The notes under the pieces: model-generated | Database searches by the model: none | The model's input: the letters and a program-made list of their open reading frames with translations, nothing else | Told to the model about the DNA's origin: nothing | Shown here: piece by piece, positions 11,133-62,000 of the stretch | How positions within the stretch are numbered: position 1 is the stretch's first letter | How the letters are laid out: each line of letters starts with the position of its first letter | NCBI RefSeq assembly: GCF_004010195.1 | Contig: NC_057753.1 | Coordinates: 4,686,887 to 4,748,886 of the forward strand | DNA: 62,000 nt | DNA from: Chiloscyllium plagiosum | Taxonomy: Eukaryota | Direction of reading: 5' to 3' | Position numbers and translations under genes: made by a program

Positions 11133-11458
11133 GATTAGATTTGATTAGATTACATTACATTACAGTGTGGAAACAGGCCCTTCAGCCCAACAAGTCCACA
11201 CCGACCCGCCGAAGCGCAACCCACCCATGCCCCTACATTTACTCCTTACCTAACACTACGGGCAATTTAGCACGGCCAATTCACCTGACCTGCACATCTT
11301 TGTGACTGTGGGAGGAAACCGGAGCACCCGGAGGAAACCCACGCAGACACGGGGAGAATGTGCAAACTCCACACAGTCAGTCGCCTGAGGCGGGAATTGA
11401 ACCCGGGTCTCCGGCGCTGTGAGGCAGCAGTGCTAACCACTGTGCCACCGCGCCGCCC
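11133..11458 (-). mobile_element. HE1-like SINE, young subfamily
   Basis: Box A/B head, V-domain and (TCTAA)n/(TGTAA)n tail; nearly identical to the copies at 26846, 37067, 50896 and 61595. Confidence 0.95.
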
Positions 11459-11499
11459 ACGGTGGTTACCTCTTTTAAAAAAAAACTTACTTAGTTTGT

Positions 11500-15155: not shown

Positions 15156-15517
15156 CCAACACAATCTGTCTGTTTCTCTTTCTTCTCTCGTTGAGGTTGG
15201 TGCCTTTTGTGGGTTCAGACCGTGTAGCATGTTCTCTTCCCTGAAGGATATCAGTTGGATTTTTATTACAACCCAGCATCTTTCATGGTAATTTGTTTCC
15301 CCAGTGCCAGCTTTACAAATTACAACATTTTTTCAGCTCAGCTATGCAACCTGCCATAATGTTTTTACACTCTGATTCCCTCTGTTCTATTTTAACTTAA
15401 ATTTACAGGGTATGAGAAGAGGTGGATTTACAGTCCGGAAACTAAAACCAAACAGAACATCAGTATCCAGCAGAGTCGCCCACTTTAACATCACCAGAAT
15501 AACGTCGGATTTTGAAA

Positions 15518-16387
15518 ATGGAAGGAGAAAGCACTGCTCACAGTGAGGAGAAACCACATAAGTGTTCTGTGTGTGGACGAGGCTTCCCACAATTACTTGG
15601 TCTATCAGAACATAAATGTAGGAACAACAAAGAGAAACCATGGAAGTGTGGGGACTGTGGGAAAGGATTCAGTTCCCCATCAAATCTTGAAACACATCGA
15701 CGCGTTCACACTGGGGAGAGGCCGTTCACCTGCTCCGACTGTGGGGAAGGATTCACTCAGTTATCCCACCTGCTGACACACCGGCGAGTGCACACTGGGG
15801 AGAGGCCATTCACTTGCTCTGAGTGTGGGAAGGGATTCACTCAGTCATCCCATTTGCTGACACACCAGCGAGTGCACACTGGAGAGAGGCCATTCACTTG
15901 CTTAGTATGTGGGAAGGGATTCACTCAGTTATCCCTCCTGCAAAGACACCAGCGAGTTCACACTGGAGAGAGGCCGTTCAGCTGCTCTGACTGTGGGAAA
16001 GGATTCATTCAGCTATCCCACCTGCTGAGACACCAGCGAGGCCACTCTGGAGAGAGACCGTTCACCTGCTCTGAATGTGGGAAGGGATTCACTGCCTCAT
16101 CCACCCTGATGGTGCACCAGCGTGTTCACACTGAGGAGACGCCATTCAAGTGCTCTCACTGCGGAATTGGGTTCAAGCACTCCTCTAACCTCACCGTACA
16201 CCAGAGAGTTCATACTGGGGAGCGGCCATACACCTGCTCCATGTGTGGGAAGGGATTTACTCGGTCATCCTACCTACTGACACACCAGCGTCTTCACACT
16301 GGAGAGAGACCATTCACTTGCTCCATGTGTGGGAAGGGATTCCCTTGTTCATCCCACCTGCTGAGGCACCAGCGGGTTCATAAGTAA
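15518..16387 (+). CDS. C2H2 zinc-finger protein ZNF-A (9 canonical fingers plus 1 degenerate; no KRAB/SCAN/BTB seen)
   Basis: Uninterrupted ORF from ATG 15518 (the track's 15512 start is TTG); CxxC-x12-HxxxH repeats with TGERP linkers; TAA at 16385. Confidence 0.93.
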
Positions 16388-19859: not shown

Positions 19860-20635
19860 TTTCTGTTTTTATCCCCCCACACTACCACCTAACTGCAGTT
19901 GTGCTTATTTTTTCCCCAGCACCAATGTTGAGTGTGTGCAGATGTGAGACACAGTGAAAGACACAGGTGCATGAATCTTTATTCAGTTTCCACTACCAGG
20001 AAGAAGGGAAACACCCAAGTGGCCACCGACAAGCAGTGCCCTTCACATCAAAGGGCAAATGCTGCATGATCAAACAGTGAAGGGGAGTGCAGGGGTTAAA
20101 TCAAAATAGAATCGGATGGGGAAATAATACACTCCCTGCCCTGCGGTGCCCACCTCTCCCTGAACAATTCCAGGGTGTTGGTGGACATCATGTGCTCCTT
20201 CTCCAGAGACACCCAGGCTCGAACATAACCGCGGAAGAGGGGCAGGCAGTCGGCCCTAATGACCCCCTCCAAGGCCCGCTGCCTGGACCTGTTTATGCCT
20301 AGTTTGGCTAGGCCCAGGAGCAGACCCATGAGGAGGTCTTCAGACCTCCCCTCCCCCCTCCGTGCCCGAAGATCAGGAGCAGGGAACTGAAGTGCAACCA
20401 AAAGCAGTGAAGGAGGTTTTTAAGAAAATCAAAAAGCGAGTGCAAACGCCCACAGAACAAGCAGTTGGGCTGGGAATCCATGAACGACTGCAATCTGCAG
20501 TTGCAGGGGTCCACTGCGTGCGGCATTCTCCATCCCAGATCCCCAAGAGAAAGGGGGAGGACTCCTGCGTAGAGAGCCCTCCACTGGGGATCTCTAGCAC
20601 CTGGTGGCAAATGGGCATGCCAAGGCATGTCCGGG
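19860..20635 (-). mobile_element. Tx1 (L1-clade) LINE 3' end
   Basis: ORFs 20308..20628 (WRALYAGVLP...DLGWR...CLFCG) and 20096..20401 (LLLGLAKLGINRSR...FRERWAP) resemble the Tx1 ORF2 C-terminal zinc-knuckle region. Confidence 0.8.
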
Positions 20636-21048
20636 CAGCCTCAGACACTCCAGGGAAAACAGCCCCAGCCTATTCGACCTCTCCCGAGAGCTCAAATCCT
20701 TCAACCCTGGCAACATTTGTGTAAATCTTTTCTGAACCCTTGCAAATTTCACAACATCCTTCCGATATGAAGGGGACCAGAATGGCACATAATATTAGGA
20801 CCAGGCTATAGTTGTGAGTTTGTTTCATCATGTAGTCAAAGAGCTGGAGGGCTGAGGAGGTCAGTGAAAGGGACTCACTGAGTGCACGTCTGAAGGAGGC
20901 AGAGAACTTCCTCAGACTCTCTTTGAAGAGACTTGGCAGCGGAACAAACTTGGTTAGAGACCAAAACAAAAATTGCAGATGCTGGAATCTAAAGTAGACA
21001 GGCAGGAGGCTGGAAGCACACAGCAAGCCAGGGGGTAGCAGAAGGTGC

Positions 21049-21536
21049 AAGAATCGACGTTTCAGGCAAAAGCCATTCATCAGGAATACTCTGAAGGGTC
21101 TCTTTCTGTGCTGTACACCTCTATGACTATGACTCCTCGGATGCTGCCTGACCTGCTGTACTTTTCCAGCATCACACTCTCGGCTCTGATCTTCAGCATC
21201 TGGAGTCCTCACTTTCGCCTGGTTACAAAGATGAAACCCTTCCAAAACCAAACCAAGATTGAAAGTACCCCAGAATAAGACAATTCTGTTTTTGTGAATA
21301 CCTCTTTTACAGCCATACCCAAATGTGGGATGTGGGAAAAATAGTGTTACTTCTGCAATTCCATTTACTTATACAAAGTAAATGAGCTCACACCAGTGTG
21401 TAATTGTTTTAGCCAAGAGCTGAGTCAACAAGAATGCAAACTATGTGGAGGAAATACAGAATTGTTGTTGTATTAGCTAAAATTGTATGCCAGAATGAAA
21501 CGACTGCAAAACAATGATAGATATTACAGGCGAATA
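21049..21536 (+). repeat. Left arm of ~490-bp inverted repeat
   Basis: Reverse complement of 23067-23557 with only scattered differences; includes a PLE/CR1-tail junction and unique AT-rich DNA. Confidence 0.95.
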
Positions 21537-22280
21537 GATGGCGAATCGGAATAGGCAGGCGGGACGAGCACTGCGCCGGCTCCACCGCGTCCGCGTGACT
21601 GACGGCAGCTCCGGACCAATAGAGCAAGGGGGCGGTTTGGTCTTCCCACCAATCGGAGTAGGCAGGCGGGACTCCACGGGGCCTATCACGTGGAAGCACT
21701 GGGGCACGTCACATGACCACACAACGGCCGGCTCTCCTGCACAGGCGCAGTGGCACTGCGATTGAAGTCTTGAAGGAGAGAAGTTGGAAGAGATGGCGAA
21801 TGTGGAGCTACAGCGGACAGAGGGAACAAGACGGAGCTAGTGCGCGCTGGGAGGTTTAATAAACAGGCCTGCAGATCCGAATTAGAAACTACCGGCCCCG
21901 CGTTTGCAGCAAACGGAAAAACGGCTGCGGCCCGCGGTACCGTCGCCATCTTTCTCGGGGGCATTGTTGCTCGAGAGGAGTGCGTGGTCGCCATCTTTCT
22001 CGGGGGCATTGTTGCTCGAGAGGAGTGCGCGGTCGCCATCTTTCTCGGGGGCATTGTTGTTCGAGAGGAGTGCGTGGTCGCCATGTTTGTGGGGGGCATT
22101 CTGCAGCAGGGCGCGTGCGCAGCCGTCCTTTTGCAGGCGTGTTGGAAACTGAACGCCCTGCTGAATTTCTATGCTGGACTGAGAAAGGAATTTTTGTTTA
22201 CGGGATGTTGATTGGGCAAGATCTGTAAACGGGAAACGCAACGGAAGCATCGCATCTAGAGTCACTGGATTCACCAGGTA
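21537..22280 (+). promoter_or_regulatory. CpG-island promoter 2
   Basis: CCAAT boxes about 21616 and 21649; GC box about 21628; E-box CACGTG about 21687; YY1-like AGATGGCG about 21790; candidate donor CAG|GTACGA at 22278. Confidence 0.75.
21942..22135 (+). repeat. 45-bp tandem repeat (3 near-identical units plus 2 diverged)
   Basis: gtcgccatctttctcgggggcattgttgctcgagaggagtgcgtg units start at 21942, 21987, 22032 and 22077, with a degenerate unit at 22122. Confidence 0.95.
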
Positions 22281-22292
22281 CGAAATATCATT

Positions 22293-22517
22293 CAAATTAC
22301 TTTATCTGAACTATCATCAACTTTTCTCGACCAGCATCCTGCAACCACAGCATCAATGCAGCCCCCCTCCACACTTCACTTCAGCTCTGATGAAGAGCCA
22401 TGTCGACTCGAAACGTTTTCCTACTCTCTCTCCATGGATGCTGTCTGGACACGCTGTGACCTCCAGCATTTGTTGTCTTCAGGACAGATTCCAGCATCAG
22501 CAGTAATTTGTTCCTAT
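22293..22517 (+). mobile_element. PLE-terminus insert with 11-bp TSD and hammerhead motif
   Basis: TSD gaaatatcatt at 22282-22292 and 22518-22528; CTGATGA 22387-22393 and GAAA 22410-22413. Confidence 0.75.
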
Positions 22518-23066
22518 GAAATATCATTGCCCTATAGAAGCAAGAAGAGATTTGTCCATTCTCTCTGACGGTTGTGTGAGAAATAAAGCTCACACACTTC
22601 AATAATTGCAGTCCGAGGCAAAATCTGAATCAGTGGTGTCCTTTATTTTACCCTTGCAAAAGGGTGTGATGTCCAGAGACATACACATCCCAAATTCAAT
22701 TAATACACAACATTTATATAATTTGGTTTCTTTTGTTTTACATTGCTCCTCCCCTGTTTACATCTTCCACTTCCCTAAGACCGGCACCCATTACTCCTGT
22801 TTATCTCTTGCCTTATCCGGCCTTGTCTGTGACAAAATGCTGATTTCTGGCCTCACAAGGCCGTTTGACCTCATCCCGCTGTAGGTCATTGTTAGGCATA
22901 TTCTTCACCATTATCTACCCCCTCCATCTGTACCTTTCCCTGATCCTTATGACCCTTTTAATTGGGGTTTGTTCCTGTGTTTCTGTAAAAGTGGGAAACA
23001 GATGTTTATACCTACTGTTTGCACAGGCGTATCTAGCTTAACTTCCTCCCCTCACAGCATCTTATT

Positions 23067-23557
23067 TATTCGCCTGTAATATCTACCATTGTTTTGCTGT
23101 CACGTTTCATTCTTGCATACAATTTTAGCTAATACAACAACAATTCTGTATTTCCTGCACATAGTTTGCATTCTTGTTGACTCAGCTCTTGGCTAAAACA
23201 ATTACACACTGGTGTGAGCTCATTTACTTTGTATAAGTAAATGGAATTGCAGAAGTAACACTATTTTTCCCACATCCCACATTTGGGTATGACTGTAAAA
23301 GAGATATTCACAAAAACAGAATTGTCTTATTCTGGGATACTTTCAATACTGGTTTGGTTTTGGAAGGGTTTCATCTTTGTAACCAGGCGAAAGTGAGGAC
23401 TCTGGATGCTGAAGATCAGAGTCGAGAGTGTGATGCTGGAAAAGTACAGCAGGTCAGGCAGCATCCGAGGAGTCATAGTCATAAAGGTGTACAGCACAGA
23501 AACAGACCCTTCGGAGTATTCCTGATGAATGGCTTTTGCCTGAAAACGTCGATTCTT
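23067..23557 (-). repeat. Right arm of ~490-bp inverted repeat
   Basis: Reverse complement of 21049-21536; ORFs 21045..21278 (+) and 23327..23605 (-) translate almost identically. Confidence 0.95.
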
Positions 23558-23667
23558 CTGCTCCTCAGATGCTACCTGAACTGCTGTGCTTTTCCAGCAC
23601 CACACTCTCCACTTTCATTTTTGTAACACCCAGCTGTTGCTTGGCAGTTACCTTACATTCATGACAA

Positions 23668-24998
23668 AAGATGGAAAATTATAGGCCAATTAGCCTAACC
23701 TCGGTTGTTGGTAAAATTCTAGAATCTATCATTAAGGATGAGGTTTCTAAATTCTTGGAAGAGCAGGGTCGGATTAGAACAAGTCAACATGGATTTAGTA
23801 AGGGGAGGTCGTGCCTGACAAACCTGTTGGAATTCTTTGAAGAGGTGACAAGTAGGTTAGACCAGGGAAACCCAGTGGATGTGGTCTGTCTAGACTTCCA
23901 AACGGCCTTTGATAAGGTGCCACACGGGAGGCTGTTGAGCAAGGTGAGGGCCCGTGGTGTTCGAGGTGAGCTACTGGTATGGATTGAGGATTGGCTGTCT
24001 GACAGAAGGCAGAGAGTTGGGATAAAAGGTTCTTTTTCGGAATGGCAGCCGGTGACAAGTGGTGTCCCGCAGGGCTCAGTGTTGGGGCCGCAGCTGTTCA
24101 CATTATATATTAATGATCTGGATGAAGGGACTGGGGGCATTCTAGCGAAGTTTGCCGATGATACGAAGTTAGGTGGACAGGCAGGTAGTACTGAGGAAGT
24201 GGGGAGGCTGCAGAAGGATCTAGACAGTTTGGGAGAGTGGTCCAGGAAATGGCTGATGGAATTCAATGTGAGCAAATGCGAGGTCTTGCACTTCGGAAAA
24301 AAGAATACGAGCATGGACTACTTTCTAAACGGTGAGAAAATTCATAAAGCCAAAGTACAAAGGGATCTGGGAGTACTAGTTGAGGATTCTCTAAAGGTTG
24401 AGTCTGTGATTAAGAAAGCGAATGCAATGTTGTCATTTATCTCAAGAGGGTTGGAATATAAAAGCACCGATGTGCTACTGAGACTTTATAAAGCTCTGGC
24501 CATTTGGAGTACTGTGTCCAGTTTTAGTCCCCACACCTCGGGAAGGACATACTGGCACTGGAGCGTGTCCAGCGGAGATTCACACGGATGATCCCTGGAA
24601 TGGTAGGTCTAACATATGAGGAACGGCTGAGGATCCTGGGATTGTATTCATTGGAGTTTAGAAGATTAAAGGGAGATCTAATAGAAACTTACNNNNNNNN
24701 NNNNNGTGGACATAGCCTTAGAATTAGAGGGGGTAAATTCAGAACAGAAATGCTGAGACATTTCTTCAGCCAGAGAGTGGTGGGTCTGTGGAATTCATTG
24801 CCACAGAGTGCAGTGGAGGCTGGGATGCTAAATGTCTTCAAGGCAGAAATTGATAAATTCTTGATGTCACAAGGAATTAAGGGCTACGGGGAGAATGCGG
24901 GTAAGTGGAGTTGAAATGCCCATCAGCCATGATTGAATGGCGGAGTGGACTCGATGGGCCGAATGGCCTTACTTCCACTCCTATATCTTATGGTCTTA
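23668..24998 (+). mobile_element. Young CR1 LINE, 5'-truncated, RT domain largely open
   Basis: 306-aa ORF 23671..24591 with [28 protein letters not shown] and KFADDTK; frameshifted C-terminus; 3' tail. Confidence 0.96.
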
Positions 24999-25827: not shown

Positions 25828-26095
25828 TTTGAACATGGAAAATCGAAATACCGTACATGTTTCGGAGTGCAGGCGAGATTTCACCCGATCACGTGATCCG
25901 TCAAAACACTAATGCGCTCACTTTGGGGGAAAAACCTTGGAAATGTGGAGACTGTGGGGAGGCATTCATCTACCCACCCCTGTTGGAAATACCTCGGCGC
26001 AGTCACACAGGGGAAAGGCCGTTCACCTGCACTGAGTGTGAAAAGGGATTTGCTAATATCTCTGCCCTACTGAAACACCAGCACACTCGCACTGA
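25828..26095 (+). pseudogene. ZNF 5' relic
   Basis: Family start context ttttgaacATGGAA (25835), frameshifted, then [11 protein letters not shown]...[16 protein letters not shown]; truncated at about 26095. Confidence 0.85.
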
Positions 26096-26589
26096 AGCTG
26101 GGGCGAGAGGAGCTCCCGCTGGAACAAAGGGTGGGACACTCAATAAAGTAACCCTCTGAGCATGCACCTCCAGAGGCTCAGCAAGCAAGCACGTCCCACC
26201 GACAGCAAGCACCGCCCCCTCCCCCTTCTTCAGGAAGAACACCGCCTTTCAGTGCGTCTTTCGAGGCAGTGAAAGTGGTGCGGGCGCCCACCCATCCCTT
26301 GCCAAGGCCGTGGCATATGCCTCTTTTCTCATGTCGGGCTGAATGTGACATTTGAACCCGAGCTGTTTTGTTAAATATGTAAAAAGGCATCCAGGAGGAG
26401 TGTGGGATGCAGAGAATGCATCTACCCCCTGCGTAGGAATGACTGGACGCCACCCCAGATGTTGTTTCAGTTGGTCCTGCATTTGCCACCATGCTCCCTT
26501 CTCCCCTCCCCAAATCCAGGAGCAACTCCTCCCCTCTCGTAAATAGCATGTAAAGGAAACTGGGAGAGTCCCATTAGGCTTTGTCTAAT

Positions 26590-27450
26590 GGTCTCATGGC
26601 CTGGCAGACGGAGGAGCAGAAATTAGGCTGTTCAGCCCATCGAGTCTGCTTCGCCATTCGATCATGGTTGATAAGTTTCTCAACCCCATTCTCCCACTTT
26701 CTCCCCGTAACCCTTGATCCCCTTGGCAATCGATTTAATTTATTTCTCTCTGTTTTAAATATTCTAAATGACTTGGCCTTCTGTGGCAGTGAATTCTCTT
26801 GATCCACCACTCTCTGGCTGAAGAAGTTTCCCCTTGTCTCCATTCTAGATTAGATTAGATTAGATTACTTGCAGTGTGGAAACAGGCCCTTCGGCCCAAC
26901 AAGTCCGCACTGCCCCGCCGAAGCGCAACCCACCCATACCCCTACATTTACCCCTTACCTAACACTACGGGCAATTTAGCATGGCCAATTCACCTGACCC
27001 TGCACATCTTTGTGACTGTGGGAGGAAACCGGAGCACCCGGAGGAAACCCACGCAGACACGGGGAGAACGTGCAAACTCCACACAGTCAGTCGCCTGAGG
27101 CGGGAATTGAACCCGGGTCTCTGGCGCTGTGAGGCAGCAGTGCTAACCACTGTGCCACCGGGCCGCCCATAAAAGGTAAAGGTCTTCCCTTTGCTCTGAG
27201 GCTGTTCCCTCAGGGCATCGTCTCTCTTGCCAGTGGAGGCATCTTCCCAACGTCCAGGCTGTTCAGTATTCTGAAAGTTTCAGATCCCCCGCGTCTTGCT
27301 AAACTCCATCGAATACAGTCCTCAAACGTTCCTCATATGTCAAGCCTTTCATTCCTGAGATCATTCTAGTGAGCTTCCTCTGGACCCGCTCCGGGGCCAG
27401 TACGTCCTTCCGGAGGTATGGGGCCCAAAATTGCTCACAATACTCCAAAT
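26590..27450 (-). mobile_element. CR1 3' fragment interrupted by SINE
   Basis: ORF 26574..26843 RGNFFSQRVV; continues past the SINE. Confidence 0.8.
26846..27168 (-). mobile_element. HE1-like SINE, young subfamily
   Basis: Full length, (GATTA)n tail. Confidence 0.95.
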
Positions 27451-28339: not shown

Positions 28340-29150
28340 CCACCCTCTCTCTCCTACCTTCAAGCCAATTTTGTATCCAAATGGCTGGCTAGATCCCATG
28401 AGATCTAGAGATGGAAATGTGTTGCTGGAAAAGCGCAGCAGGTCAGGCAGCATCTAGGGAACAGGAGAATCGACGTTTCGGGCATTAGCCCTTCTTCAGG
28501 GCTAATGCCCGAAACATCGATTCTCCTGTTCCCTAGATGCTGCCTGACCTGCTGCATTTTTCCAGCAACACATTTCCATCTCTGATCTCCAGCATCTGCA
28601 GACCTCACTTTCTTCCCATGATATCTAACCTGATTAACCAGTCTACCATGTGGAACCTTGTCAAGTGCCTTGCTGAGGTCCATATTGACAACATCCACCG
28701 CTCTGCCTTCATCAATCTTCGTCCATTCTTTATCATTTCTTCAAAAACCTCGTGAGTGAGACACAATTTCCCACACACACAGCCATGTTGACCATCCCTA
28801 ATCAGTCTTTGCCTTTTCAAATGCATGTCAATCCTGTCCCTCAGGATCACATCCTACAAATTATCTGCCACTGACTCGGGTCCAACAGTCTATAATTCCC
28901 TGCCTTTTCTTTATCACCTTTCTTAAATTATATCACAACATAAGCCAGCTTCTGGTCTTCCAGCACCTCACCTGTGGCTATTGATGATACAAATATCTCA
29001 ACAAAAGGGACAAGCAATCACTTCCCTAGTTTCCCACAAAGTACTGGGATAGACCTGATCAGCGCCCAGGGATTTGTCCGCCTTTGTGCAATTTAAGGCC
29101 ACCAGCATCACATTCTCTGTAACATGGACACCTTTCAAGTTAGCACTATT
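28340..29150 (-). mobile_element. CR1 ORF2 fragment
   Basis: [37 protein letters not shown]. Confidence 0.85.
28408..28613. mobile_element. Palindromic PLE-terminus mini-element with 14-bp TSD and hammerhead
   Basis: About 85-bp inverted arms around 28495; TSD tcccatgagatcta (28394-28407) / tcccatgatatcta (28614-28627); minus-strand CTGAAGA-a-GGGC-taat-GCCC-GAAA-CGTC. Confidence 0.85.
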
Positions 29151-36861: not shown

Positions 36862-38145
36862 GAGCTTGAAGATTTGTCTTCGGACGTTTTGTCACCAAAC
36901 TAGGTAACATCATCAGTGAGAGTCTCCGGTGAAGCGCTGGTGGTATGTCCCACCTCTCTATTTATAGGTCTTGGTTTCTTAAGGTGGGTGATGTCATTTC
37001 TGGTTCTTTTTCTCAAGGAAGGTAGATAGGATCTAAATTGATGTGTTTATTGATGGAGCTCTGGTCAGATTAGATTAGATTAGATTAGATTAGGTTACTT
37101 ACAGTGTGGAAACAGGCCCTTCGGCCCAACAAGTCCACACCGACCCGCCGAAGCGAAACCCACCCATACCCCTACATTTACCCCTTACCTAACACTACGG
37201 GCAATTTAGTGTGGCCAATTCACCTGACCTGCACATCTTTGTGACTGTGGGAGGAAACCGGAGCACCCGGAGGAAACCCACGCAGACACAGGGAGAACGT
37301 GCAAACTCCACACAGTCAGTCGCCTGAGGCGGGAATTGAACCCGGGTCTCTGGCGCTGTGAGGCAGCAGTGCTAACCACTGTGCCACTGTGCCGCCCAAT
37401 GCCATGCCTCTAAGAATGCCATGCCTCTAAGAATTCTCATGCGTGTCTTATTTTTGCCTGTCCAAGATGTGTGTGTTGTCCCAGTCCAAGTGGTGACTTT
37501 CTTTCTCTGTATGTATAGAAACTAGTGGTAGTGGGTCGCGTCTTTCGGTGGCCAATTGGTGTTCATATATCCTGGTGGCAAGTTTCCTGCTTGTTTGTCT
37601 GATGTAGTGTTTCTTACAGTTCTTGCATGGTATCTTGTAAAGGACGTTAGTGTTGCTGAGAGTATCTAATGGACTCTTTACGTTCATTAGACGCTGTTTA
37701 AATGTGTGTTGGTAGGTTTGTGGACTACCATGATGCCAAGGGGTCTGAGTAGTCTGGAACTCATTTCTGATATGTCTTTGATGTAAGGTAATGTGGCTAT
37801 AGTTTTGGGTTGCGTTGTGTCTGCTTGTTTGAGTTTATTTCTGAGGAATCGGCGGATTGTGTTTATTGGATACTTGTTTTTCTTGAAAACATTGCAGAGA
37901 TATTTTTCTTCTGCTGTTTGTAGTTCTTGGGTGCTGCAGTGTGATGTAGCTCATTGAAATAATGTCTTGATGCAGCTCCGTTTGTGGGTGTTGGGATGAT
38001 TGCTTCTGAAGTGAAGTATTTGGTCCGTGTTTGTTGTTTTTCTATAGACACTAGTTTGAAGCTCTCCATTAACCGTACATTCAACTGTCATGTCTAGGAA
38101 TGGGAGTCTGTTGTCGTCGTCCTCATTTGTAAATTTTATGCAACA
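36862..38145 (-). mobile_element. Penelope-like element (RT C-terminus, GIY-YIG, terminal hammerhead)
   Basis: IKFT...LPFLD...VYRKTTNTD...SNHP (37951..38151); VLYKIPCKNCKKHYIRQT...RIYEH (37448..37687); minus CTGATGA (36916-36910)-GTTACC/GGTGAC-AAAA-CGTC. Confidence 0.92.
37067..37397 (-). mobile_element. HE1-like SINE, young, inside PLE
   Basis: Full length; followed by a 17-bp tandem duplication of host DNA (aatgccatgcctctaag twice). Confidence 0.95.
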
Positions 38146-44599: not shown

Positions 44600-44995
44600 T
44601 CTGAATGTGCGCCCTGGGGCACACTGCCCCTCATAAACATGGCAGCCCCGCGGAACATTGCCCCCAATAAATATGGCGACCGGTTTTTTTTTCACCGCCG
44701 TTTGATGCAAACGCGGGGTCGGACGTTTCTAATTTGCATCCAGAAGTCTACATTATGTGTTTATTTTTTTAAAAAAAATCTCCAGTCCATAATAGTTTCT
44801 CCCATTCACTGCTGTCCGTCCCCCTTTACCGTCCTCTTCACCTCCCGCCCTGGACAGACAGTGATCGCGGTGGCTTTGCGAAGTCGCTGCGGCGGCCCAG
44901 TGGTTCCGCCTGTCGTCCGCTCCGATTGGTTCGAGCCCAGACATCCGCCGCTTCTCATTGGTCCGAAGCCGCTGTCAATCAACTGGGATCTATTG
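44600..44995 (-). promoter_or_regulatory. CpG-island promoter of ZNF-B
   Basis: Minus-strand CCAAT boxes (attgg about 44925 and 44957); CpG-rich; two copies of the cluster motif at 44622-44680. Confidence 0.75.
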
Positions 44996-47483: not shown

Positions 47484-48362
47484 TCATTGTGGTTGCTTGT
47501 GAACTCGCTGGTGCCTCAGCAGGTTGGACGAATTAATGAATCCCTTACCACACTCAGAGCATGTGAATGGCCTTTCCCCAGTGTGAGTGCGCCGATGTAT
47601 CACCAAGATGGATGAACGCGTGAATCCCTTTCCACACTCTAAGCAGATGAAGAGCCTCCCTCCAGTGTGAACCCGCTGGTGGGTGAGCAGATGGGATGAC
47701 CGAGTGAATCCTGTCCCACACTCAGTGCAGGTGAATGGCCTCTCCTCGGTGTGAATTCGCTGGTGAACAGCGAGTTGAGATGATCGCTTGAATCCAGTCC
47801 CACAGTGGGAGCACCTGAACGGTCTCTCGTCAGTGTGGAGGCGTTGATGTCGCATCAGTTCCCCAGAACTTTTAAAGCATTTCCCACAGTCTGGGCATTT
47901 AAAAGGTCTTTCGTCAGTGTGAACACGTTGGTGTGCGAGGAGATTTGTTAACTGAGAGCATGACTTCCCACAGTCAGAGCAGATGAACGGTCTCTCCCCA
48001 GTGTGAACCCGCTGGTGTGTCTGCAGGGCAGAGGACTGAGTGAATCCCTTCCCACAGTCAGGACAAGTAAACGGTCTCTCCCCAGTGTGAACCCGCTGGT
48101 GTGTCTTTAGGGTGGACAATTGAGAGAATCCCTTTCCACACTCAGAGCAGGTGAACGGCCGCTCCCCTGTGTGACTGCGCTGATGAGTGTCCAGCTCAGA
48201 TGGGGATTTGAATCCCTTCCCACAGTCTCCACATTTCCATGGTTTACCCCCGCTGTGGCTGCAGTCATGTTCGGACAGGCCCGGTGATTGGCTGAAGCTG
48301 GGCCCACACACACAACACGAATCTGATTGCTCACTACAGTGAAGGGCGCTGTTTCCTTCCAT
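47484..48362 (-). CDS. C2H2 zinc-finger protein ZNF-C (10 fingers)
   Basis: 292-aa open [11 protein letters not shown]...; 10 C2H2-spaced units; acceptor tttcacAG at 48475-48474. Confidence 0.93.
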
Positions 48363-49387
48363 GTTTAAAATCCAGTGATCTTAAAAGGTTCCAACGAATT
48401 GGGCAACTTCATCAGATCCTAATATGATTTCGGTTTCACCTTTCCGACCTCAAATCCTCCCACTTAATATCTCCTGTGAAACTGTTCTAAAACAGAAAGC
48501 TGAGAGTGAGAGGAAAACCCACCAAAAACACAAACGCATGTTGTGAAACTCAGTGGAATGACTCCAGTCATCTGTGGGACATGCACGAGAAATAGTGACT
48601 ACAAAAGCTGTTGATTGTCATAAAAACTAAACACGTTTGCCAATGTCTTCTAGAAAAGGGAACCTACAGCCCAGTCTGGATTTACACCAGACACTTGTCT
48701 CGATGGGAGGACAGGAAGATAGATATGGGAGTGGCAGAGGGATTTTATGTATTTGCAACTTGACTGGAATTCAGACGGAATCTCCCACTTCCGCAACCTC
48801 CATGATCTGGAAGGACCAGGGTAGCAGGTCTAGGTGAACACCATCAGCTCCAGGTCATACACCATCCTGATTTGTCTGACCTCCAGTTCTGGATAAGTGG
48901 AAAGTTCCTCCGTTTAAATATTAGGAAGACGGAAGCCACTGTCTCAGCCTTCACAACAAACTTTTCTCCCTCACCACTGCCCCCATCCCTGACCTTGGTA
49001 ACTGTATGAGGCTGAAACAGATTGTAAACAACTATTACAAAATGTTTCACTCTAAGATGAGCTTCTAGCCACACATTCCATTATCACCAAATTGCCTGTA
49101 TCCACATGGCTCCCCTCCCTATCTCTGTAACCTCCTGCAGACTCAACACTGTAGGTCTCTGTAGGAGTAACTACCCTCCACCCTAGTCTCAACTTTTCTG
49201 GTGAAACTTTTGTTTATGTCCAGACTAAACTATCCTAACACACTCCCAGCCAGCCTTCCACATTCAACCTCCCTATAATCTCGAGGTCATCCAAACGCTG
49301 GCTGGCCATGTGTCGTCTTGCACGCGTTTTCTTCATCCACCACCAGTCTGTTCACTGACATATCTGTTTAACAAGCTCTAGTGTTTT

Positions 49388-52300
49388 AGTCATAGAGTCA
49401 CAGAGACATACTGCATTGAAATAGACTGTTCATCCCAACTTGTCGATGCTGACCAGATATCCTAAATTAATCTACTCCCAAAAACCAACATTTGGCCATA
49501 TCACTTCCCCACTACCACCCCAGCCCCCAAACCCTTCCTATTCACGTACCTACCCAGATGTCTTTTAAATGCTGCAGTTGTACCAGCCTCTACCATTTCA
49601 TCTGGCAGCTCATTCCATACATGCACCACCCTCTGCGTGAAAATGTGACCCCCTTCGGGCCCTTTTAAATCTTTCCCTTCTCACCTTCAACCTGTGTCCT
49701 CTGGTTTTGGACACCCCCACCCTGGGGAAAAGACCTAGACTATTTACCCTTTCCATGCCCCTCATGATGTTGTAAGTCTCTGCATGGTCACCCCTCAGCC
49801 TCTGACACACCAGAGAAAAAAAACCCCCGAGCCTATTCAGCCTCTCCCTGTAGCTCAAACGCTCCAACACTGGCAACATTCTGTCAATCTTTTCTGAACC
49901 TTTCAGGTTTAACGGCATTCCTCCTGTAGCCGGAAGACTAGAATTGAATGCAGTATTCCAAAACTGGTCTAACAATGTCCTGTACAGTCACAACATGACC
50001 TCCCAACTCCTATACTCAGTGTTTTGACTAATAAAGGAAAGAATACCAAACACCTTCTTCACTACACTGTCTACCTGCGACTTCACTTTCAAGGAACTAC
50101 GAACCCGAGTTCCAAGGTCCGTTTAGTCGGCAATACTCCCAGGACCTTACCATTATAAGTCCAAAATGTAGCACCTCACACTTATCAAGATTAAATTCCA
50201 TCTGCCACTCCTCGGCATAAGATCAGTTTATGTGATCAAGGTCCCGCTGTACTATTCTGCTATACACTACACTTCCAATTTTGGTGTCAGGTGCAAATTT
50301 GCCAGCTATACCTCCTATGACAACATCCAAATCATCTATATAAATGACGAAAAGCAGTGGACCCAGCACTGATCCCTGTGGCACACCATCTGTCACAGGT
50401 CTCCCAGTCTGAAAAGCATCCCTCAACCACCACCCTGTGTCTCCTACCTTCCAGCCAATTTTGTATCCAAATGGCTAGTTCTCCAAATGGCTGTCGATGA
50501 TACAAATATCTCAGCAAGGGGTCCAGCAATCCCTTCCCTCGCTTCCTAGTAAGTTCTGGGATACAGCTGATCAGATCCCGGAGATTTATCCACCTTTATG
50601 CATTTTAAGATGTCCAGCACCTCCTCCTTTGTATTGTTGACACTTGTCAAGATATCACAATTTATTTCCTCAAATTCTCTAGCTTCCATACCTTTTTCCA
50701 CTGATGCAAAATACTCGTTTAGTGTCTCACCCATCTCCTGTAGTTCCACATGTAGACAGCTTTGCTGATCCTTAAGAGGCCCTATTCTCTTCCGAGTTAT
50801 TCTTTTGTCCTTCATGTATTTGTAGAAACCCTCTTAACCCTATTTACCAAAGCCATCTCATATCCCCTTTCTGCCCTCCTGATTTCCCTCTTAGTGGGCG
50901 GCATGGTGGCAGTGGGCGGCACGGTGGCACAGTGGTTAGCACTGCTGCCTCACAGCGCCAGAGACCCGGGTTCAATTCCCGCCTCAGGCGCCTGATTGTG
51001 TGGAGTTTGCACATTCTCTCCGTGTTTGCGTGGGTTTCCTCCCACAGTCCAAAGATGTGCAGGTCAGGTGAATTGGCCATGCTAAATTCTCCGTAGTGTT
51101 AGGTAAGGGGTAAATGTAGGGGTATAGGTGGGTTGCGCTTCGGCGGGTCGGTGTGGACTTGTTGGGCCGAAGGGCCTGTTTCCACACTGTAAGTAATCTA
51201 ATCTAATCTAATCTAATCTAATTCAAAAAAATATACTCCTACTATCCTTATACTCCTCGAAAGATTCACTTAATCCCTGCTGTCTATACCTGACATATGC
51301 TTCCTTCTTTTCCTTGACCAGAACCTCAATTTCTCTACTAATCCAGCATTCCCCAAATCTACCGACCTTGCAACTGGACTCTCGTTATCTCATTTTGGAA
51401 GGCTTCCATTTTCCAGCCTTCCCTTTACCTGTGTATATCCACCCACAATCAACCTTTGAGAGCTCTTGCCGAATGCCATCAAAGCTGGCCTTCCTCCAAT
51501 TTGGAACTCTGATTTTTAGATCACATTTATCTTTTTCCATCACGATCTTAAAACTAATAGAATTATGATCACTTGCCCAAAAGCGCTCCCCCACTGACAC
51601 CTTAATTATTTGCCCTGCCTTTTTTCCTAAGAGAAGGTCAAGGTTTGCTCCTTCTCTAGAAGTCCATCCACATACTCAATCAGAAAATGTTCTTGTCCAC
51701 ACTTTACAACTTCCTCTCCGTCCAAGACTTCAATGTTATAGCAGTACCAGTTTGTGTTTGGAAAGTTAAAAGCTGCTACTATAACCATCCTATTATTTTT
51801 ACAGACAACTGTGATCTCCTCACAGATTTCCCGCTGACCATTGGGGCATAAAATAGTACAATCCCATTAACGTGATCATCCATTTCTTATTTCTCAGTTC
51901 CATCCAAATAATTTCACTGGACGTACTCTCTAGAATATCCTTCCAAAGTACAGCTGTAATGTTATCCCTACTCAAACATGCCGCTCCCCCTTCTTCCCCT
52001 GCCCTTCCTGTAGCGTCTATACCCTGGAACATTACGCTGTCAGTCCTGTCCTGTCCATCCCTGAGCCATGTCTCTGTAATAACTGTGATATCCCAATCCC
52101 ATATTCCCAACCATGCCCTGCGTTCATCTGCCTTCCTGGTTAGGCCTCCTGCATTGAAACAAATGAAGTTTAATTTCTGTTTTCTTCCTGCCTACCTTGA
52201 ACATTTGACCTGCTCCTTTCCCAACTGCACCAGCCTCAGGGTGATCCCTTTTCTCACTATCTCTCTGAATTCAACCCCTGCCTTACTAATTTATGTCCTC

Positions 52301-56047: not shown

Positions 56048-56532
56048 TAGAATCCCTACAGTGTGGAAACAGGCCCTTCAGCCCACCAAGTCCACACCAA
56101 CCCTCCGAAGAGTATCCCACCCAGACCCATTCCTCTACCCTATTACTCTATATTCCTGAAGAAGGACTTATGCCCGAAACGTCGATTCTCCTGTTTCCTG
56201 GATGCTGCCTGACCTGCTGCGCTTTTCCAGCGACACATTTTCAGCTCTGATCTCCAGCATCTGCAGACCTCACTTTCTACTCTATATTTACCCTGACTAA
56301 TGCACCAAACCTACACATCCCTGAACACTATGGACAATTTAGCATGACCAATCCACCCTAACTTGGAAACCTTTGGATTGTGGGAGGAAACCGGAGCACC
56401 TGGAGGAAACCAATGCAGACACGGGGAGAACGTGCAAACTCCACACAGACTGTTACCCCGAGGCGGGAATCGAACCTGGGTCCCTGGTGCTGGGGGGCAG
56501 CAGTGCTAACCGCTGAGTTACCGTGCCGCCCC
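56048..56532 (-). mobile_element. HE1-like SINE interrupted by PLE-terminus insert
   Basis: Insert 56155-56277 flanked by tactctatatt (56144-56154 and 56278-56288), starting at a CTGAAGA hammerhead core. Confidence 0.88.
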
Positions 56533-57111: not shown

Positions 57112-59060
57112 CAGAGTCGATAAAGTGTGGAGCTGGAAAAAGCACAGCAGGTCAAGCAGCATCAGAGGAGTAGGAGAGTCAACATTTCAGGTCAGGACCC
57201 TTCATCAGGATTGGGGAAGGGGCTGAGAAATAAACAGAGGGAAGAGGAGTAGAGCTGGGGAAAAAGGTAGGCGGGATGGTAGGAGGTGATTGCAATTCGT
57301 CAGTGGGAGGAAGGGTGGAGCAGATAGGCGGGAAGGAAGGTGGACTGGCAGGGTCAGGTCAAGGGGGTGGGGCAGAGAGGGAGGGCTGGACCTGAGTGGA
57401 GATTGGGAAGCTGGTGAATTCCACGTATGATTGAAAGCTCCCTCGGTGGAAGATGAGGCGTTCTTCCTCCAGTGTGCATGTGGTCCAAGCCAGGACGGAC
57501 ATGTCGTCAAGGGAGCTGGAAAGGATAGCAACCAGAAGGTGGGCTTGTTGGTGTGTACGGACTGTAAATATTTCCTGAACTGATCTCAAAAGTTTACTCA
57601 CGGTCTCTCCGATGTAGAAGAGAATACATCTGGAACAATGGATGCAATATGTTAGAGGAAGTGCAGGTGATTCCTTAGGGCCTTGGATGGAGTTAAGAGG
57701 GGAGATGTGGTGGCAGGTGCAGGGAAAGGTGCCACGTGCGGCGGAGAGGTTGGTGGGGAGTGTGGACCTAATGATGGGAGTTGCAGAGGGAACAGTCCCT
57801 ACGGAAAGTGGATAGGGGTGGTGGGGTCAGAATGCAGGTGGCAAAAATGGCTGAGGATGATGTGTTGGATTTGCAATGTGAGGACCCAGCCAGGGGGACT
57901 CTATCCTTGTTGCGGTTGGTGAGGGCTTTGAAAGCAGAGGTGAGGGAAATGAAGGAGGTGCAGTTGAGGCCATTACATTTCACAGGGGAAGGGAAATTAC
58001 GGTTCTTGAAGTAGGCGGACAACTGGGATGTCCTGCAGTGGAATCGCTCACCCTGAGAGCAGGTACAGCAGAAGCAGAAGATTTGGGAGTAAAAGATCGC
58101 ATTTCTGCAGGAGGGGCAGCGGGAGGAGATGTCATCAAGGTAGCTGTGGGAGTCGATGGGTTTGAAATAGATGTCAGTGCTAGTTAGTTGGTGGAGATGG
58201 AGATGGAGATGGGGAGGTCCAGAAAGTGGGGGGGGGGGGGAGGTGTTAAGCGATTGTCCAGGTGAATGAGTTGAAACTTTATTGCTGGAACAGCACAGCA
58301 NNNNNNNNGGTGGAAGGTGTTAGTGTAGTGGATGAACTGTTCAACCTCCTCGTGGGAGCACGAGGTAGCGCCTGTGCCCGAAACGTCGAATCTCCTGTTC
58401 CCTGGATGCTGCCTGACCTGCTGTGCTGTTCCAGCAATAAAGTTTCAACTTTGATCTCCAGCATCTGCAGACCTCACTTTCTCCTCCAGGTGAATGAGGT
58501 CAGGATGGAAGATGTGGGTGAAGTTAATGAACTGTTTGAGCTCCTCATAGGAGCACGAGGCAGGGCAGATACAGTCATCAATGTAGCGGAGGAAAAGGTG
58601 GTGCTGGTGTGAATGCAGCAGAGGGATTATTCCATGTATCCTACGAAGAGGCATAGCTCAGGCCTGTGTGGGTACCCATAGCCACCCCGCTGGTTTATAG
58701 GAAGTGGGAGGATTCAAAGGAAAAGTTGTTCAGGGCGATGACCGGTTCCGCCAAGCGAATGAGAGTGTCGGTGGAAGCGCATCGATTGGGTCTGCAGGAG
58801 AGGCAGAAACAGAGTGTTTTTAGGCTCTCCTCATTGGGGGAGGGGTAGGGTGGAATACAGATGTAGAGAGACTGAATGTCCATGGTGAAGATGAGGTTTT
58901 GGGGACTGCAGAATTGAAAGTCATGGAAAAGGTGAAGGGCGCGAGTGGTGTCCTGAACATAGGTGGGGAGTTCTTGGACCAACGGGGTAGGGTGGAGTCA
59001 AGAGGAGATGAGTTCAGTGGGACAGCAGCAGACAGAGACTATTGATAGACTGGGGCAGTG
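57112..59060 (-). mobile_element. Penelope-like element, RT through terminal repeat, decayed
   Basis: YVQDT...LIFTMDIQSLY (58695..58982), FLRYIDD (58445..58654), LEEERLIF; hammerhead about 57177-57210. Confidence 0.9.
58271..58484. mobile_element. Inverted PLE-terminus insert with 14-bp TSD (contains gap)
   Basis: tccaggtgaatgag at 58257-58270 and 58485-58498; inverted arms ttgaaactttattgctggaacagcacagca. Confidence 0.75.
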
Positions 59061-59799: not shown

Positions 59800-60175
59800 A
59801 GCTCCGCCCATTCATTCCAAACATTGCCCCCGACAAAGATGGCGGTCGCACACGGCCCCCCCCCGCGCGATGCCGTCGCCCCCGACAAAGATGGCGGCCG
59901 TCAGACCGGGGCCTGTCCCTTGGGAGCAAGCTTGGAGCCGTTGCTCCAGTTGGAACAAACGGGGCACTGGGAGATTCTCATTCGGGGTTTGTAGCTCACG
60001 TCAGACAGTTTACGGGTCGTGTCCGTCCACCCGCGGCATCTATCGCCGCTCCCGTCCCGCCTCATTTGGTAACCTTTCCGGAGCCAAGGAATGAAAGTCG
60101 GTCCACGGCCATATCGCGCTCCGCGCATGCTGTATTCGCGACGGTCTCTGCGCATGCGCACTGCTCTCCTGGTTG
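59800..60175 (-). promoter_or_regulatory. CpG-island promoter 4
   Basis: CpG-rich; NRF1-like GCGCATGCGCA about 60150; two copies of gcccccgacaaagatggcgg at 59826 and 59878. Confidence 0.7.
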
Positions 60176-60602: not shown

Positions 60603-62000
60603 GAGGTGCCAGTGTCGCACTGGGTGGACAAAGTTAGAAGTCACACGACACCAGGTTATAGTCCAGCAGGTTCATTTGAAATCACAGACACACACAAAAT
60701 AGGCACCCGAGCAGAGAGATCAAAAGATCACACAAATGGTGAGAGTGGAGTGGTGTGTCTCTGCAGGTGATCAAAAGTGTCAGAAACTGTGAGTGAAGTG
60801 TCAACAGCTGAATAACAAGTGAAGGGACGACTGATTAAATGAGGCAGAAAGATATTTTACAATTAAAAATAAGGCGGTGCTGGAGATTAACCAAATGAAT
60901 GAAACAACATGATAGCTATAAGAGTTACATGCTGAGGGTCTAACCAAAGTAATAAGTAATCCAAAACTGTACAAACTAATTAAGGTAAAGAAATCATAAT
61001 TTGTCAAGTGATGGTGTTAAAACAGGACAGTAAGGAAGATTTTACAGATACAGAATAGTGTGGTGGGGTCACATATAGCATGATATGAACCTGAGATCAC
61101 AATTGAGGCGGTCTTTATGGGCAACAGAACTTGGCTATCAGTTTCTGGTCAGCAATTCTGTGTTGTTGTGTACCTCGAAGGCCACCTTGGAGGATGCTTA
61201 TCCAAAGATCGGAGGCTGAATGCCCTTGACCGCTGAAGTATTCCCTGACTGGGAGGGAACATTCCTGTCTAGCGATTATTGTCCGTTCATCTGTAGCGTC
61301 CACATGGACTCGCCAATATACCATGCCTTGGGGCATCCTTGCCTACAGTGTATGAGATAGACAATATTGGCCAAGTGATATGAGCATGTGCCACGTACAT
61401 GGTAGGTAGTGTTCCCATGAGTGATGGTAGTATCCATGTTAATGATCTGATATGTTTTGCCACAGCAGGGTTGTGTGATGTTGTGGTCCATGTTGACCTG
61501 AAGACTGGGCAGTTTGCGCAAACAATGATCTGTTTAAAGGCAAGAAGTGGAGATGTAAGGATGATTTTGGTGAGATGCTCATTGTCATAAATGTGAGCGG
61601 CACGGTGGCACAGCAGTTAGCACTGCTGCCTCACAGCGCCCGAGACCCGGGTTCAATTCCCGCCTCAGGCGACTGACTGTGTGGAGTTTGCACGTTCTCC
61701 CCGTGTCTGCAAGGGTTTCCTCCGGGTACTCCGGTTTCCTCCCACAGTCCAAAGATGTGCAGGTCAGGTGAACTGGCCATGCTAAATTGCCCGTAGTGTT
61801 AGGTAAGGGGTAAATGTAGGGGTATGGGTGGGTTGCGCTTCGGCGGGTCGGTGTGGACTTGTTGGGCCGAAGGGCCTGTTTCCACACTGTAATGTAATGT
61901 AATCTAATCTAAACATGTTGAAGGCTGCGAAGAACATGACATTCTCTCTTCTCTGGAGAAATACTGGATGACGAAGGTACTCTATCAGACATATCCTATG
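60603..62000 (-). mobile_element. Penelope-like element (GIY-YIG region plus family-B terminus), runs off window
   Basis: NIVYLIHCRQGCPKAWYIGE (61276..61521); EQKLIAKF-like DQKLIAKF; terminus acaccaggttatagtcc. Confidence 0.88.
61595..61912 (+). mobile_element. HE1-like SINE, young, inside PLE
   Basis: Full length, tail (TGTAA)n(TCTAA)n. Confidence 0.95.

Follow-up and report, generated by a model that had tools for sequence, protein, structure and literature searches.

Near-identical inverted arms around a CpG-island promoter in a shark zinc-finger cluster look like an old, one-off local inverted duplication

The CpG-island promoter termed promoter 2 is enclosed by two nearly identical inverted arms, which together represent a real, old and one-off inverted duplication of a known kind. 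The duplication most probably (at roughly three chances in four) arose locally by DNA template switching of the four-point type 1-4-3-2, within the FoSTeS/MMBIR or homeologous-repair family. The arms look like an ordinary old accident rather than a working promoter switch; the original prediction had favored such a switch, probably wrongly, and had read part of each arm as unique DNA, which is incorrect. All positions refer to the window, that is, the whole 62-kb stretch of DNA that was analysed, which is a C2H2 zinc-finger gene cluster set among LINE, SINE and Penelope-type repeats. On this reading, the locus is a clean, readable case of a shark zinc-finger cluster so densely filled with similar repeats that these give rise to inverted duplications nearby and rearrange what surrounds a promoter, with Penelope-type tails acting at the junction as Alu copies do in human rearrangements. 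The features on which this reading is based are collected in Table 1.

Table 1. Positions of the arms, their component parts, their junctions and the neighboring features in the window.
Feature	Position	Strand	Basis
Left outer flank: Penelope-type tail remnant of 'subfamily X', cut at arm start (putative switch-out point)	20963-21048	-	alignment, contigs
Left arm: derived inverted copy of 23064-23557	21049-21539	+	alignment; polarity from junctions
Penelope-type tail end with hammerhead-like motif	21059-21083 (motif)	-	within arm part 21049-21222
Second Penelope-type tail piece	21133-21222	.	within arm part 21049-21222
Sole low-copy stretch of the arm	21223-21322	.	contig depth
217 bp from the 5' (U3) side of the LTR-like repeat, truncated; now immediately upstream of the promoter	21323-21539	+	contig depth, sequence
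Left inner junction (putative return point), with a 7-bp direct repeat across it	21529-21546	+	sequence
Promoter 2 (CpG island) with a probable non-coding first exon that ends at a CAG/GT donor	21540-22277	+	CpG, contigs
45-bp tandem array, 3.5 copies, 94%; YY1-like GCCATnTT core per unit	21942-22100	+	repeat scan, motif
Complete 707-bp solo-LTR-like repeat, antisense within the probable first intron; crosses the right inner junction	22575-23281	-	sequence, contig depth
Right arm: donor (original) copy	23064-23557	-	both ends native
Right outer flank: seamless Penelope-type tail continuation, 'subfamily Y'	23558-23616	+	alignment, contigs
Nearest downstream C2H2 zinc-finger remnant, frameshifted, one full finger	25833-26159	+	sequence

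Gapped alignment of the left arm with the reverse complement of the right arm gives identity in 475 of 494 columns, the remainder consisting of 16 substitutions (11 transitions and 5 transversions), one 1-bp indel and one 2-bp indel. The longest perfect run is 134 bp, and with 97% identity over 443 nt when aligned without gaps, the arms surpass every other long inverted pair of the 62 kb in similarity, far above chance. The expected architecture of near-identical arms of about 490 bp bracketing a core of about 1.53 kb is thus borne out, with an arm identity of 96% over 491 bp and a core of 1524 bp. As both arms contain the identical tail-tail junction, a single duplication is the indicated origin, and the arms appear to be the product of one inverted duplication rather than of separate transposon insertions. 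This part of the earlier proposal stands; its description of the duplication as recent was overstated, given the divergence of 3.3%. The outer ends of the arms sit inside two tail copies, and similarity fades over the 40 bp beyond them. No direct repeat of 4-12 bp, and hence no target-site duplication, was found at the outer ends when these were shifted by up to 15 bp, and the three 4-mers present within 15 bp of the outer ends are either part of a tail palindrome or lie off the ends.

Contigs from four public runs (X1, X9, X16 and X13; 4 of 24) were compared with the left flank, left arm and core at a likeness of 85. In the bin 21246-21321, summed contig depth was 6.5 in X1, 0 in X9, 11.7 in X16 and 0 in X13. 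For X1 and X16 it ranged from 7,756 to 83,089 across bins 21322-21549, where each listed variant site was represented by 25-42 contigs; depth is equally high across bins 22538-23063. Since many differing contigs fall on 21323-21539, this stretch belongs to an interspersed family, depth itself being no copy number. Of the roughly 300 bp in the arms that had been described as unique and AT-rich, no more than about 100 bp proved to be low-copy. The LTR-derived stretch contains one AP-1-like heptamer, and 21091-21128 in the left arm is presumably a LINE/SINE-type tail.

A hammerhead-like motif is present at both arm ends, the right-arm core motif having one extra base. The minimal hammerhead-like core pattern occurs at five sites in the window (21059-21083, 22387-22414, 23522-23547, 28475-28499 and 56156-56180). 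A search of 20900-23700 against Rfam at E-values up to 5 returned three matches, all far below gathering scores, and no hammerhead. Minimal hammerhead forms are carried by Penelope-like elements, according to PMC6155905. The frame at 57362-57826, beside a tail copy, had an Atlas score of 0.94 to clusters with GIY-YIG on 13-29% of their members (14 of 30 hits). Pfam found no GIY-YIG, and the three Penelope-like frames tested received no name. The label 'Penelope', which draws on the hammerhead-like motif together with the Atlas lead, is a candidate assignment.

The repeat at 22575-23281 has, from its sequence, the anatomy of a solo LTR: it possesses TG...CA ends, with a TATA-like box at position 562 followed by AATAAA at position 635, and it is high-copy and interspersed. 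Its target-site duplication is imperfect, matching in 3 of 4 bases, and three candidate end pairs reach that level. No second copy of the repeat is present in the 62-kb window, which is why the stretch had looked unique. For a stretch of 22 bases from the LTR, a metagenome scan returned 0 matches. Two origins centered on the LTR itself, namely a retro-integration with two U3 ends and independent LTR insertions, were rejected because the duplication also takes in 274 bp beyond the LTR ends, which is not LTR DNA, and the unit is without a flanking target-site duplication.

The junctions distinguish the original arm from the copy. The right inner end corresponds to position 218 of the 707-bp LTR, and at the left inner junction the LTR is cut off. 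The joint from 21539 to 23063, on opposite strands, is found in 2 X1 contigs with a summed depth of 657 among the matches listed; as these are family contigs, the sequence of the LTR family itself continues across the right inner junction. Outside the arms, the right flank shares 44-50 identities in 56-63 columns with four window tail copies that belong to the subfamily other than X (the fifth copy was omitted), and the left flank shares 34-38 identities in about 60 columns with the same four. Moreover, 342 X1 contigs and 397 X16 contigs follow the left flank up to 21032 and then depart from the window sequence, and 135 X1 contigs join at 21050, where they are preceded by sequence of the right-flank ('subfamily Y') type. 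The left outer element is therefore an X/Y chimera. With both native junctions on the right, the right arm is the donor and the left arm the copy, and the core keeps its ancestral orientation, without net inversion.

The 7-bp repeat pattern that spans the left inner junction is seen at 0.5% of 20,000 random window points. No contig bridging 21539/21540 occurs among the matches listed in the four runs. Similarly, the left-arm letters at 21256 and 21268 are absent from the X1 matches listed, the single X1 contig there having the right-arm letters.

In the proposed template switch, two inverted Penelope-type tail copies of different subfamilies, about 2.5 kb apart, would have flanked promoter 2 at the start. 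A strand that was either nascent or broken, with its end near 21048 in the left tail copy, would then have annealed to the similar right copy near 23557 and copied 491 bases backwards, comprising intron DNA and then the first 217 bases of the solo LTR. At the promoter's edge, at about 21540, it would have gone back to its original template. The DNA between the left tail and the promoter would have been lost, the orientation of the core would have been kept, and the arms would have drifted apart afterwards. The locus presents a nearby reverse-complement copy, a donor that is native at both ends, an uninverted spacer, and homeology or microhomology at the new junctions, all of which are features of the 1-4-3-2 type. 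The repeat itself, the polarity of donor and copy, the chimeric outer junction, the lack of a target-site duplication and the divergence on both arms are shown by the data, whereas the repair pathway, the extent of the DNA that was lost and the absence of function are what we infer. A sequence scar cannot separate replication switching at a fork from break repair.

Events of type 1-4-3-2 yield an inverted repeat without inversion of the spacer, and according to PMC5453318 they account for 31% of high-confidence human-chimp events. The present locus shares with the cases of Loytynoja and Goldman (2017; PMC5453318) the order of switch points, the inverted repeat, the uninverted spacer and the close donor; the events described there, however, are short clusters of tens of bases, whereas the copied piece is here 491 bp and the first switch would have occurred by repeat homeology. 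A second parallel comes from PLP1, for which PMC4352052 describes chimeric Alu junctions, one of them holding a 488-bp segment ascribed to a U-turn between close inverted Alus. Here, too, there is a chimeric repeat at the junction, together with close inverted copies and a copied piece of about 490 bp. Unlike at PLP1 (PMC4352052), the repeats are Penelope-type tails, and the event is old and lies outside any large triplication.

Immediately inside the left arm, CpG o/e in 200-bp windows rises from 0.0-0.13 (windows from 21200 and 21300) to 1.07 (window from 21500), in agreement with the prediction that the CpG island starts where the left arm ends. The core likewise holds promoter 2 with its 45-bp array, as had been claimed. 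Contigs from X13, presumed to be RNA, cover 21696-21937 and 22140-22277, the second stopping exactly at the CAG/GT donor. Cover by X9 begins at 21725 and that by X1 extends to 21613; the uncovered stretches (21550-21612 in X1 and the promoter in X16) are holes that carry no evidence, and the contigs give no strand. There is a weak hint of promoter 2 activity in the direction in which it now points. The idea of a fold-back RNA was rejected, since transcription from promoter 2 starts within the core and only one arm would be transcribed. The DNA upstream of the promoter has been replaced by the LTR piece, which could have altered its activity. That only pseudogenes lie downstream is borne out as far as the window reaches, where stops or frameshifts break each of the zinc-finger remnants on the plus strand (25833, about 31100 and about 32200), two of which share the exon start of the intact gene.

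Several further observations concern this promoter and its paralogues. YY1-like GCCATnTT cores are found in four CpG islands of the zinc-finger cluster (15134, 21945-22080, 44636-44670 and 59836-59888); these islands hold 9 of the 19 GCCATnTT sites in the 62 kb, and the array of promoter 2 multiplies the site to four. The array recalls the tandem YY1 array of Peg3, as described in PMC4196374. The promoter also contains a duplicated unit of CCAAT-box and GC-box (21543-21567 and 21650-21673), the upstream copy of which is altered right at the left-arm junction. A word of 11 bases that sits on the left inner junction (21536) occurs a second time at 21791.

The arms differ by 3.3% (95% interval 1.9-5.2%), against 0.3-0.5% for single-copy contigs compared with the window (5 differences in about 1,090 bases in X1, 4 in 860 in X9 and 2 in 581 in X13). 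As this divergence is well above the differences in single-copy contigs, the arms are not two alleles. Both arms have changed since the duplication: among the differences that could be polarised, those at 21102, 21183, 21256 and 21268 and a 2-bp loss are derived in the left arm, those at 21060, 21121, 21201 and 21202 (in left-arm coordinates) are derived in the right arm, and that at 21092 is ambiguous. At the epaulette shark mutation rate of 7e-10 per base per generation given in PMC10587355, the duplication would date to about 2e7 generations ago (1e7-1e8 over the interval of that source), a figure that assumes that the rate applies, ignores CpG decay and copying errors, and is to be read only as 'old'. 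A difference-free gap of 134 bp arose by chance in 5.6-9.5% of 20,000 simulations, so that there is no significant converted tract. The X13 and X16 runs share an organism label but differ much in their likeness to the window, and no firm date was therefore taken from X16. One low-copy X16 contig of 1142 bases contains a 121-base piece that falls on 21173-21293 with 8 differences from the left arm; this contig may be an orthologue or a paralogue without the LTR, and its depth (11.2) is also found at 22534-22543.

The arms could share the proposed origin and yet now mediate an inversion polymorphism, in which the 1.5-kb core is turned round by non-allelic recombination on a subset of chromosomes or in a subset of cells. 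This is unlikely, even if the arms are 96% identical over 491 bp and lie 1.5 kb apart. According to PMC6748972, human recurrent inversions use inverted repeats that are more than 90% identical, and close repeats can recombine through matches of less than 50 bp according to PMC2583991; the same sources, however, give 654 bp as the smallest repeat among 24 human inversions, with a range up to 24.2 kb (PMC6748972), and an efficient range of about 200-500 bp for the perfect run, which is 134 bp here, with a 20-fold reduction of recombination in mouse cells for a match of 134 bp relative to one of 232 bp (PMC2583991). Thus, while the locus resembles the human recurrent inversions of PMC6748972 and PMC3961182 in having inverted repeats of more than 90% identity around a short promoter-bearing segment, it differs from them in that its arms are shorter than 654 bp, its perfect run is 134 bp and no second orientation was seen. 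Also against this alternative, the assembled haplotype is in the ancestral orientation and both arms have diverged without a significant converted tract. A rare flip by ordinary recombination may occur.

The stronger claim, that the accidental arms became a working switch through which recombination reverses promoter 2 in certain individuals or cell types, is very improbable. Nothing positive was found in favor of the invertible switch put forward in the original prediction. With the two native junctions both in the right arm, there was no net inversion, and the arms have diverged separately with no significant homogenised tract. Pfam identified no recombinase among the nine of the 113 window ORFs that were searched. 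If the switch were nevertheless true, promoter 2 would either drive a transcript of the zinc-finger remnants or fire antisense into the 3' end of the gene at 15503-16387, with the LTR U3 piece upstream of the promoter in either state. This would make it an invertible promoter within the zinc-finger cluster of a vertebrate. The flipped core would aim the promoter, in antisense, at the 3' end rather than the start of this intact plus-strand zinc-finger gene, 5 kb away. Importance would need a flip that is shown and is regulated or common.

Origins other than DNA template switching were also weighed. An RNA-templated copy in cis, for which a DNA end within the left Penelope-type copy would have primed a reverse transcriptase that used the nascent transcript of promoter 2 as template, has a fitting geometry, in that the transcript crosses the right arm and the plus strand of the left arm is its complement; promoter 2 also seems to be transcribed (again a weak hint), and the copied piece ends at the sense hammerhead-like motif at 23522-23547. 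The copy, however, extends about 7 bases beyond the self-cleavage site expected from the hammerhead consensus and shares there a letter private to the right arm. This origin is consequently ranked low and considered improbable. It is further disfavored by the lack of a poly(A) and of a target-site duplication, and the location of the outer ends in the best-conserved part of the tail is explained equally well by DNA homeology. Slightly less credible again is an assembly artefact or misplaced paralogue, in which case the left arm would be absent from this place in real chromosomes. N gaps do occur elsewhere in the window, and neither the left inner junction nor the left-arm letters were recovered among the matches listed. 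Yet there is no N in 20400-24300, and the 3.3% difference between the arms, with its transition bias, contrasts with the few differences in single-copy contigs. In addition, the X1 contig of the low-copy arm has a depth of 8.59, compared with 3.6-6 for single-copy sequence, and ends at 21299, by the arm difference at 21301, which weakly suits two collapsed versions of the arm; X1 may be the assembled sample.

An inversion of the core by a staggered break, with the arms as a by-product of fill-in, is scarcely credible. Inverted duplications of similar size mark 59% of the Drosophila inversions studied, with a median of 321 bp in D. yakuba (PMC1885836), and the locus resembles these inversions (Ranz et al. 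2007) in that a segment is bracketed by a duplication that is inverted and a few hundred bases long; unlike in those cases, the segment here is uninverted relative to its ancestral junctions. A staggered break predicts one native junction in each arm, but both are found on the right, where the LTR is unbroken across the inner junction, and promoter 2 points toward its zinc-finger remnants, the same arrangement as that of the paralogous promoters 1 and 3 relative to their genes. A staggered-break inversion is therefore contradicted unless a second flip restored the orientation. The least credible origin is a foldback- or MITE-like cassette that moves zinc-finger promoters, which had been offered as the alternative to a switch. 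Foldback elements and MITEs possess a target-site duplication and sharp ends and are present in several copies. The locus shares with them long inverted arms around a spacer, here around a promoter within a cluster of paralogous promoters, but it has no target-site duplication, its outer ends are blurred and lie inside pre-existing tail copies, and its arms are a mosaic of host repeats. Moreover, the other promoters in the window are without such arms, and no second arm-core-arm unit was seen in the window. At a likeness of 85, the promoter (21613-21971, with 0 differences) and the low-copy part of the arm each lie under a single X1 contig among the matches listed, although contigs cannot prove absence. 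What the cassette proposal founders on is the lack of a target-site duplication together with the indistinct outer ends.

Elsewhere in the window, an intact minus-strand zinc-finger frame spans 47484-48380 (298 aa from stop to stop); the 1.4 kb upstream of it is without a CpG island (o/e at most 0.5), and its promoter may be the island near 60 kb. A hypothetical read-through transcript from the gene at 15503-16387 to 23557 would hold both arms and could fold into double-stranded RNA of about 490 bp. Finally, a SINE-like family of 320 bp is represented by copies at 11133-11459, 26846-27169, 37073-37398, 50912-51218 and 61593-61912, which are 89-96% identical and occur in both orientations, and unrelated repeat copies of 89-96% similarity are common in the window.
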